Shown here one piece after another: positions 25,545 through 38,033 of a DNA stretch of 64,000 bases. Both the position numbers and the translations under genes were made by a program. Origin of the DNA: Shigella phage Henu11; sequence record OM953433. One strand, given 5' to 3'. The notes below the pieces were generated by a model, which saw only the letters and a list, made by a program, of their open reading frames with translations, had not been told where the DNA came from and made no database searches. Positions within the stretch are counted from its first letter, which is position 1. Each line of letters opens with the position of its first letter.

Positions 25545-25583
25545 AGTAACAAACGTAACTTTTGACTGAGAGAAATATTATGA
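25545..25583 (+). repeat. duplicated leader, copy 2
   Basis: identical to 24579-24617; supplies RBS and ATG of Prs-like gene. Confidence 0.8.
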
Positions 25584-26461
25584 AAACTACTATTCGAGTT
25601 CTACTTAATTCAAATTCCAAAGGTTCTCATCAAGAGACCTTCAACATTATCCAGTTCCCTTCTGGGGAGATTGGTGGTAACTTCTCAGAAGACTTAGTAG
25701 ACTTTGCTGAACATGCTGCTGGTAAGATTGAAAACGTAGTCTTCACAGTACAAGGTTATGACAAAGACACACTCTTTGCATTAGCTATGGCTAAAGAAGC
25801 AATTGACCGTTTGATTCCTCAGAAAGCAACTCTGAAAACTGTTGTCTTTGGATTCTTACCAAATGCTCGCTATGACCGTCACATGTTTAAAGGTGATGCA
25901 GCAGCACTTAAAGTCTTTGCAAATCTTGTAAATGCTATGGAGTTCGATGCAGTATGTGCTCTGGATACTCACAGTAATGTTGCAGAGAATTTGTTTAAGA
26001 GCTTCTACAACCTCCCTCAAAAAGAGGCAGCAGTCCACTTTGCAAGTGACCCACGCATTGATTACTTAGTGGCTCCAGATGCAGGTGCAGCTAAGAAGAC
26101 TGAAGAGGCTGCTAAAGAGGTTGATAAACCTTATATTACAATGGCTAAGGTACGAAACCTGAAAACTGGTGAAATCACTGGTATGCGAATCCTTGATGAT
26201 GTAGACTTGACAGGTAAGACTGTCATGATTCTGGATGATATCTGTGACGGTGGTCGAACCTTTATCGAGGCTGCAAAGTATCTTCGTGAAGCTGGAGCAG
26301 AACGTGTGGAACTGTATGTCACTCATGGGATTTTCTCTAAAGGTGTTGAAAATCTCCTTGACAATGGTATCGACCATATCTACACTACAAACTCACTAGG
26401 GGATGAAAAAGACCGTGGTCTTTCCCACTTCTCACAAGTGACCGTAGCAAATATTGAATAA
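25580..26461 (+). CDS. ribose-phosphate pyrophosphokinase (Prs)-like protein; candidate ADPR-PP synthetase
   Basis: about 293 aa from ATG 25580; Prs-like ALDTHS and PRPP-binding-loop-like VMILDDICDGGRT; TTG-initiated track ORF starts 25562. Confidence 0.8.
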   Translation: MKTTIRVLLNSNSKGSHQETFNIIQFPSGEIGGNFSEDLVDFAEHAAGKIENVVFTVQGYDKDTLFALAMAKEAIDRLIPQKATLKTVVFGFLPNARYDRHMFKGDAAALKVFANLVNAMEFDAVCALDTHSNVAENLFKSFYNLPQKEAAVHFASDPRIDYLVAPDAGAAKKTEEAAKEVDKPYITMAKVRNLKTGEITGMRILDDVDLTGKTVMILDDICDGGRTFIEAAKYLREAGAERVELYVTHGIFSKGVENLLDNGIDHIYTTNSLGDEKDRGLSHFSQVTVANIE

Positions 26462-26469
26462 CAACTTTA

Positions 26470-26485
26470 GGGGCTGAAAAGCCCC
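26470..26485 (+). terminator. hairpin, weak terminator
   Basis: GGGGCT-GAAA-AGCCCC between Prs-like and NAMPT-like genes, poor T-tract. Confidence 0.3.
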
Positions 26486-26505
26486 ACTTTGAGAGAGATA
26501 AAAAG

Positions 26506-28332
26506 ATGACTAAATCACTTTATGCAGTACCAGCAGCACTTAATGCAGATGCCTACAAATCTGGCCATTTCTACCAGTATCCAGATGCTACACAGTATCT
26601 TATGCTGAACTTAACACCTCGTGGAGATAAATGGTTTAACTCTCCGTTAGAGATTGATGGTGTTGTAGCCTTTGGTATTCAGCGTTTTGTAAAAGACTAT
26701 CTGGTAGACCACTGGAATGCAACGTTCTTTGAACGTGATAAGAAAGAAGCCATTGACGAAATCTTGGAAATCATGAATGGTGTCCTTGGTGCAGATGCTA
26801 TTGGTCGTCAACATTGGGAAGAACTTCATGACTTGGGTTACCTACCTGTTGAAGTCTACTCTGTAGAGGAAGGTACAATTGTCCCTATGCGTGTCCCGAT
26901 GATTGTCTTTAAAAACACTGTAGAGGGATTCCATTGGGTAGCTGGTTACCTTGAAGATGCTTTCTCTGCTGAAATCTGGAAGGCTTGTACGATTGCAACT
27001 ATTGCACTGCATTACAAACGTATCTGTAAACAATGGGCTGACAAGACCTGTGACAATGACTTCCATTTACCTTGGCAGTGTCATGATTTTGCAATGCGTG
27101 GTATGTCTGGCTTCACAGATGATGCTTTTAATGCTGTAGGTCACTTGACCAGCTTTAAAGGTACTGACAGCTTCCCTGCTGTGTATACTGCTAAACGTGC
27201 TTATGGTCAGTTTATGACAATCAGTGATATTGGCAACTCTGTACCAGCAACTGAACACTCTGTGATGTGTGCAAACATTTCATGGAATATGAAAGACCTG
27301 ACAGAAGAGGATATTCACTCACAGTACATTATGCAGTCTGAAGGATTACTAGATGCCAAACGTTGGCGTGGTGAGGTAGAAACTTTCCATCGCCTTCTGA
27401 CAGAAGTTTACCCAACTGGTATTGCAAGTGCCGTATCAGATACTTACAACTTCTGGCGTACTGTTACACAGATTCTGCCAGAGCTACGTAATGTAATTCT
27501 GAATCGTGATGGTAAGTTGGTAATTCGTCCAGACTCTGGAGACCCTGTTCACATTGTTACAGGTTACAAAGCCGTTGAATGGGAAACTGCTAAGTCAATG
27601 TTCTACAAGCACATGAAAGGTCTTGCACCAGATAATACCCATCTGCATGACACAATCTTGAATTGTGAAATGTCTGATATTGGTTTTGGGTTCTCTGCTT
27701 GGTTAATCTCTGAAGGTTATGAGATGGTTGTTGAAAATGAAGATTTTGATTATATTGACACAATCAACCTGATTACCGCTCAGAAAACTGGACAGTTTAC
27801 TGTGAAGCGTATGTTAACAGCAGAAATTGATGGAGCTATACACACGCTGTATAACATCTTTGGTGGCACTGTTAACTCCAAAGGGTACAAAGTACTGGAT
27901 GAGCACATTGGGCTAATCTACGGTGATTCTATCACTCTGGAAAGGGCTAATGAGATTCTGTCACGTCTTGCTGATAAAGGTTTTGCAAGTTCTAACGTAG
28001 TGTTTGGTGTAGGCTCATACACCTATCAGTACCTGACTCGTGACACCTTTGCATTTGCTGTTAAAGCAACTCTTGCACAGATGGATGGTCAAGAAATTAT
28101 GCTGGCTAAAGACCCTAAAACTGACAGCGGTCTTAAGAAGTCTGCTTTTGGTGGAGTTGTCCCTATGTGGGATGGTGACAAGCTGGTAGCTGTAGATGGT
28201 TTTGGCTTTGCAGAGTTTGAAGGTGCAATTGACAACTGTCATAGTGCTTTGAAACTGGTATTTAGTAACTCGCAACCTTATGGTTACGTTAACCTGCGTG
28301 ATGTTCGAAATACTATTGACAAGCAACTTTAA
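26506..28332 (+). CDS. nadV: nicotinamide phosphoribosyltransferase (NAMPT)-family protein
   Basis: 608 aa; NADAYKSGHFYQYP, CHDFAMRGMSGF, HLTSFKGTDS, VPATEHSVM, VIRPDSGDP match NAMPT signature regions. Confidence 0.85.
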   Translation: MTKSLYAVPAALNADAYKSGHFYQYPDATQYLMLNLTPRGDKWFNSPLEIDGVVAFGIQRFVKDYLVDHWNATFFERDKKEAIDEILEIMNGVLGADAIGRQHWEELHDLGYLPVEVYSVEEGTIVPMRVPMIVFKNTVEGFHWVAGYLEDAFSAEIWKACTIATIALHYKRICKQWADKTCDNDFHLPWQCHDFAMRGMSGFTDDAFNAVGHLTSFKGTDSFPAVYTAKRAYGQFMTISDIGNSVPATEHSVMCANISWNMKDLTEEDIHSQYIMQSEGLLDAKRWRGEVETFHRLLTEVYPTGIASAVSDTYNFWRTVTQILPELRNVILNRDGKLVIRPDSGDPVHIVTGYKAVEWETAKSMFYKHMKGLAPDNTHLHDTILNCEMSDIGFGFSAWLISEGYEMVVENEDFDYIDTINLITAQKTGQFTVKRMLTAEIDGAIHTLYNIFGGTVNSKGYKVLDEHIGLIYGDSITLERANEILSRLADKGFASSNVVFGVGSYTYQYLTRDTFAFAVKATLAQMDGQEIMLAKDPKTDSGLKKSAFGGVVPMWDGDKLVAVDGFGFAEFEGAIDNCHSALKLVFSNSQPYGYVNLRDVRNTIDKQL

Positions 28333-32620: not shown

Positions 32621-33169
32621 ATGAAGAAATTTGTTTTAGGTTTGTGCTTATTCTTTACAGCACATTTAGCTACAGCGTCTGACTGTCCAGAGCTTACAAT
32701 CAGCCAGAAAGTTAATATGTTAAAAGCATATAACTATGGCGAAGGACAGATGGGAAAAGGTTGGGGAATCCCTTTAGCAGCTATAGCCTTACAAGAGTCA
32801 CAATTAGGTGTCATGTTAGAAAATAAAAAGACTCATGATTATGGTGTTTTCCAAAATCACTTGAAGACTGTTGTAAAGCGTAACAAGGTATCTCCAAAGG
32901 TTGCTAAGAAGAAGCTAGTAAGTGACTTCCATTACTCAGCGAAAGAGGCTCATAAGGAGCTATTATTCTGGACTAAGGTTCATGGTAACCCAGATGGAAA
33001 GTACTCTATGAAGCGTGTCCTAGCTTCTTATAATGCTGGTTACAAATACAAGATTCCAAAGGCTAGACAATACTCTCAAGATGTGTACAATAACATGAAA
33101 CTGCTTGCTCAATGTGAGTTTGCAACAAACATTAAAAAGGTAAAATATGAGCGAATCAAAACAATTTGA
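32621..33169 (+). CDS. secreted protein with lytic-transglycosylase-like motif
   Basis: signal peptide MKKFVLGLCLFFTAHLATA; AIALQESQLG resembles SLT-domain catalytic motif; start at ATG with AGGAG RBS. Confidence 0.45.
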   Translation: MKKFVLGLCLFFTAHLATASDCPELTISQKVNMLKAYNYGEGQMGKGWGIPLAAIALQESQLGVMLENKKTHDYGVFQNHLKTVVKRNKVSPKVAKKKLVSDFHYSAKEAHKELLFWTKVHGNPDGKYSMKRVLASYNAGYKYKIPKARQYSQDVYNNMKLLAQCEFATNIKKVKYERIKTI

Positions 33170-33842
33170 TATGGTTCTGTGTCATGCTTATGATATTAAG
33201 CCACTTGATTTAGATATCAGTTCTGCAAGTTGGTCAGATATTGCTAAAGCTGACTTTGCAGATACAGCAAGAAATGTTGTGTGTAGATTTGAAGACTTCC
33301 ACTCAACAAAGACACAGATTCCTTGTCAGGATTTGCTAACAGGTAAAACTGTAGATGTTGGTCGTAACAGCCTTATCTTGGTTGCAAAGAACTTGGAAGA
33401 AAAACGTAAAATGGTCTTAGCAGACATTGACGGTGTTCTTACAAGCTTTAATAAGGAGCTTAATGCAACTTTGTTAGATGATGGTACTTACTCACAGTAT
33501 ACTAACTTGGTAGACTCTCGCAGAGCTAAACCAACATATGTTTTTAACATCCTGTGTGGTATATCAAGAAATGCTGATATAGGATTCTTAACTGCTCGTG
33601 GAGAATCACAAAGAGTTGTCACACATCTTTTCCTGAATGAGAATGTAGACAGTGATTTCCTACTGTTTATGCGTGGATTTGGTGACAATGAGATTAGTGC
33701 AGAAAGTTTGAAAGTTCGTATGCTTCAGTCTTGCATTCTACCTTACTATGATGTAGTATGCTTTATAGAAGATACAGTGAAGAACGTGGCAAAGGTTGAA
33801 AGAATCTTACCACACATCAAAACAATGCTTGTTAAAAACTGA
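33147..33842 (+). CDS. putative HAD-superfamily phosphatase
   Basis: 231 aa; LADIDGVLT resembles HAD motif I. Confidence 0.4.
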   Translation: MSESKQFDMVLCHAYDIKPLDLDISSASWSDIAKADFADTARNVVCRFEDFHSTKTQIPCQDLLTGKTVDVGRNSLILVAKNLEEKRKMVLADIDGVLTSFNKELNATLLDDGTYSQYTNLVDSRRAKPTYVFNILCGISRNADIGFLTARGESQRVVTHLFLNENVDSDFLLFMRGFGDNEISAESLKVRMLQSCILPYYDVVCFIEDTVKNVAKVERILPHIKTMLVKN

Positions 33843-35483: not shown

Positions 35484-35694
35484 AGTTACACGTCAAGTGT
35501 TAGTAGGGGCTATATTTGTTGGACGGGATGAGGTAATACCATTCATGAACCCCTTGATTCACTACAACTTCAAGATAGGGGATTTTAAACACTACCTGAA
35601 TCCTCTGCTTACAAGATTAAGCTTAGAAGAGTTTAAGTGTAATTACTCTTATGAAGGTGATACATACTTCCAAGAGGTAATATCAAATGGCTGA
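35458..35694 (+). CDS. hypothetical protein
   Basis: 78 aa. Confidence 0.35.
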   Translation: MKAILVRSKVTRQVLVGAIFVGRDEVIPFMNPLIHYNFKIGDFKHYLNPLLTRLSLEEFKCNYSYEGDTYFQEVISNG

Positions 35695-35887
35695 TTTCTG
35701 CACTAAGTGTTCTGTTGAGATGTTTGGAAAAGATACAGGAGACTTAAAAGGTCTCTTTACAAAGGCAGAATTTAAAGCTGGTTCAGCAATGCCAGTAATC
35801 TGTGAAGGTTGCGGTGCTTTATGGGTAGACCATGAAGGTAACCGAGTTAAACCATCTGAAGATAACGAACGTTGGGAGCATTACTAA
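35687..35887 (+). CDS. small zinc-ribbon protein
   Basis: 66 aa; CTKC...CEGC cysteine pairs. Confidence 0.4.
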   Translation: MADFCTKCSVEMFGKDTGDLKGLFTKAEFKAGSAMPVICEGCGALWVDHEGNRVKPSEDNERWEHY

Positions 35888-35888
35888 T

Positions 35889-36683
35889 ATGGGTATCGTA
35901 AAAATTATTAAAGGTGATATCTTTAAAGATTTTGATGGTAAGAAGTTTGATATCATTGGTCACGGTTGTAACTGCATGAACTTGATGCCAGCAGGTATCG
36001 CAGCAACAATTGCTAAACGCTACCCAAAAGCTTATGAAACTGACGCTGAAGTTTATGCTACAGTAGGTGGTGAAAATCATAACCCTAAGCATCTAATGCT
36101 TGGTAACATCTCTGTAGCACGTTTTAAGCAGGGTCGAATTGCTAACCTTTACACTCAGGTTATCACTGGCAAAGATGCACGATACAACGCCTTAGAAGCA
36201 GCTTTACAGCGTCTTAACAACTACTGTAAAGTTAATCAACTTAAGAAAGTTGGGCTTCCGATGATTGGTGCAGGGATTGGTGGTCTTGATAGCATGGCTG
36301 TACTGTCCATTATCAACCAGACTATGAAGGATGTTGACGTTTATATGTATGTCTATGAAGATAAGATGTACAGTCAGTTGACTAGTCCTGTTACTGGTTG
36401 GGAGAACTTCAGTGAGCCTCAATACTTTGATGGTGTTGCTGTGGTAGGCAAGGATAAAGTTACCCTCAAGGTGAAGCGTAATGGCAAGGTACACACCAGT
36501 TACCCTCCGGTTGAGAAGTACAATCGAAGTAACGCTCAAGTTACCCACCCGTTACAAGGCCACCACCACAGAGCGGTAACGTTTGGCGATGATGCAAGTG
36601 TATATATCAATGCGACTACAGAAGAGTTTGCAGAAGATTATATCACACATGAAAACGTAAACTATGTTGAAGCACGTAACTAA
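35889..36683 (+). CDS. macro-domain (ADP-ribose binding/processing) protein
   Basis: about 264 aa from ATG after upstream stop; IIKGDIF, FDIIGHGCNCMNLMPAGIA and LPMIGAGIGGLD resemble macro-domain glycine-rich motifs; C-terminal extension unknown. Confidence 0.6.
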   Translation: MGIVKIIKGDIFKDFDGKKFDIIGHGCNCMNLMPAGIAATIAKRYPKAYETDAEVYATVGGENHNPKHLMLGNISVARFKQGRIANLYTQVITGKDARYNALEAALQRLNNYCKVNQLKKVGLPMIGAGIGGLDSMAVLSIINQTMKDVDVYMYVYEDKMYSQLTSPVTGWENFSEPQYFDGVAVVGKDKVTLKVKRNGKVHTSYPPVEKYNRSNAQVTHPLQGHHHRAVTFGDDASVYINATTEEFAEDYITHENVNYVEARN

Positions 36684-36710
36684 TAAGTTACCCAGATAAA
36701 CATAGACAAG

Positions 36711-36756
36711 CCCTCCAAAGTTTGAGTTTAAAATCTCAGGTAAGGAGGGCTTTTTC
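36711..36756 (+). terminator. rho-independent terminator
   Basis: CCCTCC...GGAGGG long hairpin plus TTTTT. Confidence 0.55.
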
Positions 36757-36940
36757 ATTTTAAATTTGTGCAGGTATAGTTGCATAGAACTCTGGACAGA
36801 TTTCTTTAGCTGAACTCCAAAGGGAAAATTCATTTCAAATTTGTGCAGGTTTAGACTCCAAAGGGGTTTTTCATTTTCAATCTGTGCAGATGCAGTTGGA
36901 CTCCAAAGGGAAAATTCATTTTCAGTTTGTGCAGGTAGGT
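36749..36940. repeat. four direct ~40-bp repeats (CTCCAAAGGG..TTCATTT..TTTGTGCAGGT)
   Basis: copies near 36749, 36824, 36856, 36900; TGTGCAGGT also at 32566. Confidence 0.7.
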
Positions 36941-37137: not shown

Positions 37138-37187
37138 TTTGCATCAACGGGAAACATCCCAACAATCCTAAACTGGAGAATCTGAAA

Positions 37188-37394
37188 ATGTTATATCAAC
37201 GTGAGTTAATGATTGTTGACAACAACAAAACAAATAAACGTCGTTTCTATATGCTAATTTGTGATGTTTGGCAACGTATCTCAGAAAAAGATTTTGATAA
37301 ATATGTTAATACGTCAATCAGGTCAGATTGTTACTTGACAAATCATACAAGACAGTTTACAAGACATACAGCAATTTATTATTACAACGTTTAA
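37188..37394 (+). CDS. small array protein
   Basis: 68 aa; preceded by conserved leader. Confidence 0.45.
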   Translation: MLYQRELMIVDNNKTNKRRFYMLICDVWQRISEKDFDKYVNTSIRSDCYLTNHTRQFTRHTAIYYYNV

Positions 37395-37568: not shown

Positions 37569-37652
37569 AGTACTTTACATGGGGTTTAAAAGCTAGTATC
37601 TTAAGCCCCAGATAAAGAGCTTTACCAACAATCCTAAACTGGAGAATCTGAA

Positions 37653-38033
37653 ATGAAATATCGTGCGCCTAAATTTATCAACAAAGAAAACTTTCGTAGT
37701 ATCTTAGAGGAAACTATGAAAGAAAACTTCAAAGGAAAAATAATTGTTGTTCACGCTTACAATTTTAAGTATGATGTTAATGGTAACCGTATCAACCACT
37801 ACAAAGCTACTATGCTTGACGGTACATTATCCGGTGAAAAAGCTATCATAAATGCTATTGCAGGACGTGGTAAAACTGTGATACGATGCGAAAAAAGACG
37901 CTATCAAGGCGGAAAATATGGATATGAAGATGCAATGTATCATCTTGATAAAATGGGGTATGATGTAGAGAAAGCTGGAGTATCCCAAACTATTGGTAGT
38001 GACGGCTACGTTACAGTTTTCAAAATTAATTAA
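37653..38033 (+). CDS. small array protein
   Basis: 126 aa; conserved leader. Confidence 0.5.
   Translation: MKYRAPKFINKENFRSILEETMKENFKGKIIVVHAYNFKYDVNGNRINHYKATMLDGTLSGEKAIINAIAGRGKTVIRCEKRRYQGGKYGYEDAMYHLDKMGYDVEKAGVSQTIGSDGYVTVFKIN

Follow-up and report, generated by a model that had tools for sequence, protein, structure and literature searches.

The protein encoded at positions 35889 to 36683 of a 64,000-nucleotide stretch (the window) of Shigella phage Henu11, a Mooglevirus (Ounavirinae, Felix-O1-like; sequence record OM953433), consists of an N-terminal macro domain and a C-terminal domain that is conserved throughout its family. The sequence and a structural model support an intact ADP-ribose (ADPR)-binding macro domain with the catalytic residues of the clade to which the phage proteins Tk.4 and Adpp and yeast Poa1p belong. 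It is proposed tentatively, with a probability of about 0.45, that the gene encodes an anti-defence enzyme whose main substrate would be ADPR-1''-phosphate and which, together with two NAD-related genes located elsewhere in the genome, would make up a split version of the pathway known as NARP1-AP. The proposal draws on sequence comparison, the predicted structure and genomic context. The enzyme part of the protein is ordinary, and the added C-terminal domain is its sole new element.

A macro domain had been proposed in a first-pass annotation of the window, made from the letters of the sequence, and both a profile search and structure prediction bear this out. Pfam PF01661 matches amino acids (aa) 25-141 with a score of 29.6 bits against a gathering cut-off of 22 (E 7.3e-7) and covers profile positions 2-117 of 118, while the AlphaFold2 model of the 264-aa protein (pLDDT 89, pTM 0.88) has the three-layer alpha/beta/alpha fold of macro domains. 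The open reading frame (ORF) itself is confirmed at 264 aa, and the glycine-rich motifs on which the proposal was based are all present (GDIF at aa 9-12, GHGCNCMNLMPAGIA at aa 24-38 and LPMIGAGIGGLD at aa 123-134). The elements used to recognise ADP-ribose binding were an N-terminal Asp for adenine, a loop 1 of the form N-x6-[GA]-G-[IV]-A and a loop 2 of the form G-x-G-x-G, which are found here as D10 within GDIF, as N28 to A35-G36-I37-A38 and as G127-A-G129-I-G131-G132, respectively. Besides D10, which would contact adenine, the key residues lie in the segments H25-G-C-N28-C, A35-G36-I37-A38, N86-L-Y-T89-Q90 and I126-G-A-G-I-G-G132, and the motifs shared with the clade are H-G-C-N-C, N-L-Y-T-Q and I-G-A-G-I-G-G. 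Residues H25-G-C-N28, G36, N86, T89-Q90, P124, G127 and G129 are invariant among 25 homologues.

The first-pass annotation had named MacroD and YmdB as the proteins with which to compare the domain. The best matches by sequence in the PDB are Poa1p, which ranks first, and TARG1, and the only NCBIfam and PADLOC matches are partial matches to DarG (E 5e-13 and 3e-13, respectively); MacroD/YmdB is therefore the wrong class, and the domain belongs to the Poa1p/TARG1/DarG group. It does not fit the MacroD/YmdB pattern of a catalytic Asp behind the GGG loop together with an aromatic G-[IV]-[YF]-G loop 2, nor is that class its closest by structure. Comparison values for the macro domain are 16.3 and 16.2 for DarG macrodomains (7omu and 5m3i), 15.6 for a Bacteroides orphan (2afc), 14.8 for human TARG1, 14.7 for yeast Poa1p, 12.3 for MacroD2 and 10.7 for MacroD1. 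Membership in the DarG family proper was rejected, as the protein scores 49.1 bits against a cut-off of 250 for the DarG equivalog NF048014, with aa 5-163 aligned to positions 2-153 of a profile of 338 (the macro part only), and has neither the catalytic Lys nor the C-terminal DarT-binding domain of DarG.

The catalytic residues were compared in an alignment of the window protein with T2 Tk.4, phiKZ gp104, ten NARP1-associated macro proteins, Poa1p, TARG1 and Mycobacterium tuberculosis DarG. Of the last three sequences, segments of Poa1p and TARG1 are consistent with the alignments to PDB entries, and that of DarG is backed indirectly, by its matches to phiKZ gp104 and Thermus phage phiMa. In this alignment the catalytic Lys of DarG (K80 of the Taq protein), TARG1 (K84) and phiKZ gp104 (K78) is replaced in the window clade by an invariant Gln (Q90). 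The clade retains H25, and the corresponding His is absent from DarG, as judged from the DarG sequence in this alignment. For human TARG1/OARD1 (PDB 4J5R and 2LGR), a HMMER alignment places K84 opposite Q90 and D125 opposite a Gly of the GIGG loop, by TARG1 numbering. Yeast Poa1p (PDB 6LFQ and related entries) is a eukaryotic ADP-ribose 1''-phosphate phosphatase that has Ser where the window clade has Gln, as well as a large insertion before loop 2. Poa1p acts in yeast tRNA splicing (according to bioRxiv 10.64898/2026.01.28.702374).

Two phage homologues with assigned functions bear most directly on the role of the protein. One of these is Adpp (gp137) of Vibrio phage Gary, which is encoded between the genes for Adps and Namat. 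The defence NADase aRES, which has a RES domain, produces ADPR-1''-phosphate, and liquid chromatography-mass spectrometry showed that Adpp turns this compound into ADPR, an activity demonstrated in this way for no other member of the clade (bioRxiv 10.64898/2026.01.28.702374). The three genes form the NARP1-AP pathway, in which NARP1 rebuilds NAD+ from the ADPR made by Adpp and so defeats aRES, and loss of any one of the three abolishes the anti-aRES activity; an Adpp H24A construct appears in the plasmid list of the same study (Table S4; bioRxiv 10.64898/2026.01.28.702374). Gary Adpp shares 30% identity with the window protein over 164 aa (60 bits, E 3e-16). Its H24 aligns with the family-invariant H25, and the Gln that follows Y-[TG] is conserved in both, so that the window protein has the H24-equivalent His as well as the N-x-Y-[TGAS]-Q motif, with H25, N86, T89 and Q90 all invariant. 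Both phages possess Adps and Namat. Gary Adpp differs from the window protein in having the HQCNC/YGQ variant of the motifs, in lacking a C-terminal domain and in being encoded inside an Adps-Adpp-Namat operon, whereas in the window 7.5 kb with about 13 genes separate the pair from the macro gene, which is on its downstream side. Among other NARP1-adjacent macro proteins, that of Pseudomonas phage JG004 is 32% identical to the window protein (78 bits).

The second homologue is Tk.4, which in T4 has been named AdfM (anti-DarT factor macrodomain) on the grounds that T4 with transposon insertions in the gene, or with a clean deletion of it, becomes sensitive to DarTG2; the evidence for this role is genetic (bioRxiv 10.1101/2025.11.20.689424). 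T2 Tk.4 is 38-39% identical to the window protein over about 135 aa (66 bits, E 2e-18), has the same HGCNC, NLYTQ and IGAGIG motifs and falls in the same Poa1p-like clade. It likewise comes from a virulent enterobacterial myovirus, and in T2 the gene is located in the regB-vs-tk block among small genes without known function. Tk.4 is a single domain of 155 aa, and the window protein has about 105 residues more. T4 is not known to have NARP1. Tk.4 and Adpp share 35% identity (77 bits, E 9e-22), which prompts one to ask if members of the clade have both functions, and by sequence the two are homologous, with the window protein about equally distant from both. The name AdfM spans two clades of macro domains, as gp104 of phiKZ (the AdfM of chimalliviruses; PMC13309987) shares only 22% identity with the window protein (E 0.006). 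Both gp104 and the DarG2 antitoxin are of the Lys type (K78 and K80) as opposed to the Gln type of the window clade, and there is no relation between the C-terminal domains; the Gln-type, Poa1p-like Tk.4 and the Lys-type, DarG-like gp104 are thus not orthologous.

The first-pass annotation had also pointed to a Prs-like and a NAMPT-like gene in the window, and this pair holds up at 25562-26461 and 26506-28332. The first product matches PDB structures of phosphoribosyl pyrophosphate (PRPP) synthetases at about 1e-17 and is referred to here as Adps-like. The best PDB matches of the second are the Namat structures 9W5W and 9W5X (E 2e-125), far better than its matches to canonical NAMPTs (about 1e-40), and the genes at 25562-28332 are therefore identified, from these matches, as the NARP1 pair. 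The Namat-like protein is 608 aa long compared with 491-496 aa for the solved Namat chains, and the alignment is broken into three stretches, which suggests an insertion of about 100 residues specific to the Ounavirinae enzyme. The macro gene is on the same strand as the pair, and the intervening ORFs, about 13 in number, include rIIA, rIIB, a RegB-like gene, a polynucleotide-kinase-like gene, spanins and several small ORFs. The order Adps, Namat, rIIA, rIIB and, further on, the macro gene is kept in L004, L005 and Pectobacterium phage Wc4, whose macro proteins are 38-42% identical to that of the window. About 255 phage records have a full-length macro protein, and about 255 have Namat at 60% identity or above. 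Pfam searches with 36 ORFs of the window (all of the large ones and some of the small ones, from part of the genome) revealed neither further NAD- or ADP-ribose-related genes nor an ADP-ribosyltransferase, and no Tpt1-type source of ADPR-1''-phosphate was seen in the window.

In the proposed split NARP1-AP, the N-terminal macro domain would bind ADP-ribose so that the adenine touches D10 while both glycine-rich loops hold the diphosphate and the distal ribose, and would hydrolyse the group at C1'' of the distal ribose to yield free ADPR. RES-type defence NADases (aRES) phosphorolyse NAD+ to ADPR-1''-phosphate; the macro enzyme would then strip the 1''-phosphate, and the Adps-like and Namat-like enzymes of the phage would use the resulting ADPR, with nicotinamide, for synthesis of NAD+. 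This reading is preferred because of the homology with Adpp and with the NARP1-adjacent macro protein of JG004, the first rank of Poa1p (itself an ADPR-1''-phosphate phosphatase) among PDB sequence matches, the invariance of H25, the presence of a bona fide NARP1 pair, the co-occurrence of the macro and Namat genes in about 255 records, the kept gene order and the origin of aRES, the cloned examples of which are from E. coli, Klebsiella and Enterobacter, bacteria related to the hosts of the window phage. By analogy with NARP1-AP, dephosphorylation of ADPR-1''-phosphate to feed NARP1 would be the most concrete tie between the macro gene and the NAD genes, and it did not figure in the first-pass annotation. 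That annotation had suggested an investment of the phage in ADP-ribose/NAD metabolism, serving possibly to reverse ADP-ribosylation, which fits the published role of the homologue T4 Tk.4/AdfM, or to degrade ADPR-derived immune signals, for which, as regards cyclic ADPR, there is no support here or in the literature consulted on this macro family.

Several observations weigh against a split NARP1-AP. The macro gene does not lie within two genes of Adps-Namat, which is the adjacency demanded by the published list of NARP1-AP systems; that list includes Pseudomonas, Vibrio and Acinetobacter phages, and it names no Escherichia, Salmonella or Klebsiella phage and contains neither 'shigella' nor 'citrobacter' (bioRxiv 10.64898/2026.01.28.702374). 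The co-occurrence of the macro and Namat genes may reflect a functional link but is equally consistent with shared ancestry. Among Escherichia phage records, 944 have a member of the macro family compared with 192 that have a Namat/NadV homologue, and the macro family therefore has at least one function independent of NARP1. The window protein and Tk.4 have HGCNC/YTQ in common, whereas most of the NARP1-adjacent macro proteins have HQxNC/YGQ, that of Acinetobacter phage phiAbaA1 being an exception with HGCNC/YTQ. A neighbour-joining tree (60 bootstraps) recovers the Ounavirinae clade at 100% and sets it nearer to Tk.4, at 30-35% bootstrap, every deeper node having 37% or less. Finally, no Adpp or Tk.4 homologue needs a second domain. 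The bit scores of the window protein with NARP1-adjacent macro proteins (60-78) bracket that with Tk.4 (66), and sequence does not decide between the Tk.4 and Adpp roles. A literature search returned no mention of a Felixounavirus macro domain and no report of how Felix-O1-like phages behave towards DarTG or aRES.

Foremost among the alternatives is a role of the AdfM type, in which the macro domain would clear ADP-ribose placed by DarT2 on thymidines of phage single-stranded DNA so that replication continues, and the C-terminal domain would engage DNA, the replisome or DarT2, comparable to the second, DarT-binding domain of DarG2. This is a serious possibility, to which we would give somewhat worse than even odds. 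Tk.4 is the closest characterised relative by BLAST identity, with three identical motifs, and deletion of tk.4 renders T4 sensitive to DarTG2 (bioRxiv 10.1101/2025.11.20.689424). That DarG provides the sole NCBIfam and PADLOC matches and that the macro gene does not adjoin NARP1 also fit such a role, and an extra domain is easier to explain with a macromolecular substrate than with a small molecule. On the other hand, the window protein and Tk.4 have Gln in place of the catalytic Lys of DarG, TARG1 and phiKZ AdfM, the case for removal of ADP-ribose from DNA by the Gln-type clade is a genetic one, from Tk.4, and Tk.4 and phiKZ gp104 both function as single domains. The roles against aRES and DarT2 would be compatible, as the active site proposed for ADPR-1''-phosphate may also remove ADP-ribose from DarT2-modified thymidines in phage single-stranded DNA, in the way suggested for Tk.4, and each reaction would release ADPR that NARP1 could recycle.

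It is also conceivable, though unlikely, that the protein erases ADP-ribose from some other macromolecule, such as a protein or RNA modified by an ADP-ribosyltransferase of host defence (for example, mRNA modified by an enzyme of the CmdT type) or by a phage enzyme. Proteins of the TARG1/DarG/Poa1p macro class work on several C1''-linked substrates, the fold and binding loops of the window protein are intact, and its C-terminal domain could provide target specificity; the literature that was found, however, ties no member of the phage clade to a protein or RNA ADP-ribose substrate, and the Pfam-scanned ORFs of the window include no ADP-ribosyltransferase. Less probable again is that the protein is a non-catalytic binder of ADP-ribose, acting as a reader or sponge, or that it has a housekeeping task such as clearing ADPR-1''-phosphate that arises from RNA repair. 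Many macro domains merely bind ADP-ribose, a polynucleotide-kinase-like gene is located 2 kb upstream of the macro gene (33147-33842), and residue 34 in loop 1 is Pro where close relatives have Gly. Such roles are countered by the invariance of the catalytic His and of N-x-Y-T-Q in the family, by homologues that are catalytic or needed for counter-defence, by the variability of residue 34 across the family and by the lack of a Tpt1-type source of ADPR-1''-phosphate in the window.

The first-pass annotation had described a C-terminal extension of roughly 90 aa; the extension is real, and its length is about 105-108 aa. The domain is kept in all of the approximately 255 Ounavirinae records, with a strongly diverged form in distant relatives, and in comparison with Citrobacter phage Mordin its dN/dS ratio is 0.077, similar to that of the macro part (0.071). 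It is a real domain under purifying selection. The model predicts a short helix and a linker followed by about six beta strands and a terminal helix, with pLDDT values of about 80-90 except in the linker and one loop, and residues P177, G182, P206 and Y239 are invariant. Pfam searches with single sequences and with nine family members gave chance-level matches only (DUF4767 at E 0.07, and PH at E 0.06 for one member), and the best match of a profile of the domain to PDB sequences had an E-value of only 1.1. A Foldseek search of BFVD recovered the SUSP2 orthologue alone, with a poor TM-score, and the predicted fold is therefore not independently reproduced. Judging from the model, the C-terminal domain appears to be a folded module confined to the Ounavirinae lineage, without a detectable relative in sequence or fold.

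Three candidate identities for the C-terminal domain were considered and set aside. A phmmer search against 1.8 billion representative sequences returned, in addition to the protein's own family, giant surface proteins at E-values of 5e-6 to 7e-4; these values are inflated because many weak matches to repeats are summed, and homology was rejected as the matches fall on Bact_surface_Ig-like or SdrD repeats and the fold search gives no support. The aRES inhibitor aRad1 resembles neither the C-terminal domain nor the 66-aa protein encoded upstream of the macro gene, and no aRad1-like ORF is found in the window, so a fusion with aRad1 was likewise dismissed. A basic DNA-binding module is unlikely because the net charge of the domain ranges from -5 to +2 across homologues. 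As a guess, the C-terminal domain might target the enzyme or bind a partner. A more elaborate version of this idea, which we consider doubtful and only a little less so than the eraser of other macromolecules, is a dual-target factor in which one active site would unblock both ADPR-1''-phosphate (from aRES) and ADP-ribosyl-thymidine (from DarT2), the ADPR would be recycled by the unlinked NARP1, and the C-terminal domain would add a second mode of action. In that case the C-terminal domain might bind a defence enzyme and block it, as does the second domain of DarG, or anchor the hydrolase at the replisome or on Adps/Namat.

Table 1. Coordinates of the macro gene, its domains and associated features in the 64,000-nucleotide window.
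Feature	Position	Strand	Description
Adps-like (PRPP-synthetase-like) gene	25562..26461	+	Pfam Pribosyltran and Pribosyl_synth; directly upstream of Namat-like gene
Namat-like (NAMPT-like) gene	26506..28332	+	Pfam NAPRTase and NAMPT_N
66-aa CxxC...CxxC protein ORF	35687..35887	+	PHROG 2210 (function unknown); stop one base 5' of macro start
Shine-Dalgarno-like GGGAG	35874..35878	+	10 nt 5' of macro ATG; read from sequence
Two-domain macro protein coding sequence	35889..36683	+	ATG at 35889, stop codon included; 264 aa; ORF and translation
Macro domain, Poa1p-like Tk.4/Adpp clade	35889..36356	+	aa 1-156
C-terminal orphan domain	36357..36680	+	aa 157-264, about 105-108 aa
Candidate transcription-unit end	36699..36761	+	GC-rich inverted repeat AGCCCTCC ... 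GGAGGGCT, then TTTTTCATTTT; 16 nt past stop

The 264-aa protein matches PHROG 335 over its full length (E 1.5e-105), and GenBank records already label the gene 'macro domain-containing protein' or 'phosphatase'. The window is about 97.5% identical in nucleotide sequence to Shigella phages Sf13 to Sf19 and 91% identical to Mordin, and the proteins of Shigella phage Henu12 are 100% identical at both of the genes compared (macro and NAMPT-like). The GenBank annotation of Henu12 uses an alternative in-frame start, equivalent to 35832, that gives a protein of 283 aa and an overlap of 56 nt with the preceding gene. A 264-aa coding sequence is annotated at the equivalent position in Mordin, Sf18, Sf15 and KMM2, the aligned database homologues likewise start with MGIV or MGVT, and a ribosome-binding site is annotated in the Mordin record at the place equivalent to GGGAG; the 264-aa start is probably correct rather than that of the Henu12 annotation. 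Codon 34 of the macro gene (35988-35990), which specifies a residue in ADP-ribose-binding loop 1, is Pro (CCA) in the window and Henu12 and Gly (GGT) in Sf15, Sf18, KMM2 and Mordin. All three bases differ, each being swapped for its complement, which may reflect either a genuine multi-nucleotide change or an artefact of sequencing. The residue is variable in the wider family (G, S, D, N, K or A).

The macro gene begins one base past the stop codon of the 66-aa CxxC...CxxC ORF (TAA-T-ATG), and the two are likely co-translated. Four relatives, compared by position, have a short ORF at the equivalent place (66 aa in Mordin and L005, 70 aa in Wc4 and 103 aa in L004), and the 66-aa protein may be a partner of the macro protein. 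The inverted repeat downstream of the macro gene is assigned with low confidence as the end of the transcription unit; a terminator scan made no call there because the loop is 27 nt long. Directly 3' of the macro gene, at 36733-36936, are four copies of a repeat of about 43 nt with start-to-start distances of 75, 41 and 45 nt and the consensus ..CTCCAAAGGG(A/T)nTTCATTT(T)CAAnTTGTGCAGGT, the first copy of which overlaps a GC-rich hairpin that has a T-run behind it. Apart from these repeats, the gap of about 500 bp to the next plus-strand ORF is non-coding on that strand. Perfect 29-nt direct repeats (CCAACAATCCTAAACTGGAGAATCTGAAA) at 37159-37187 and 37625-37653 contain a GGAG ribosome-binding site and extend as far as the start codon (ATG) of the ORFs at 37188 and 37653, respectively. 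As 14-nt 'repeat_region' features are annotated in Mordin right before the ribosome-binding sites of many early genes, the two copies probably represent a common leader or promoter element. Elsewhere in the window, positions 53883-55298 encode a protein of 471 aa in which Pfam recognises DUF2828 (E 7e-27) and DUF7788 (E 1e-43), amid unannotated genes that precede the structural module.

Functions for the macro clade of these phages were assigned only in 2025-26, and they are two different ones, Tk.4 reportedly acting against DarTG2 and Adpp against aRES. The Felix-O1-like phages, which are widely used for typing and for biocontrol of Salmonella and E. coli, all have a third branch of the clade, in which the macro domain has an added domain and NARP1 is unlinked. 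What is new here is the conserved orphan C-terminal domain and the separation of the macro gene from NARP1; if neither the split NARP1-AP nor the orphan domain holds, the gene would be a routinely annotated 'macro domain/phosphatase' gene. The C-terminal domain offers a clean, conserved and structurally orphan target for experiment. If the split NARP1-AP is correct, about 255 more NARP1-carrying phage records, all from enterobacterial phages (of Escherichia, Salmonella, Shigella and Citrobacter), would be equipped against RES-type phosphorolysis of NAD+, and screens based on adjacency would undercount the pathway.

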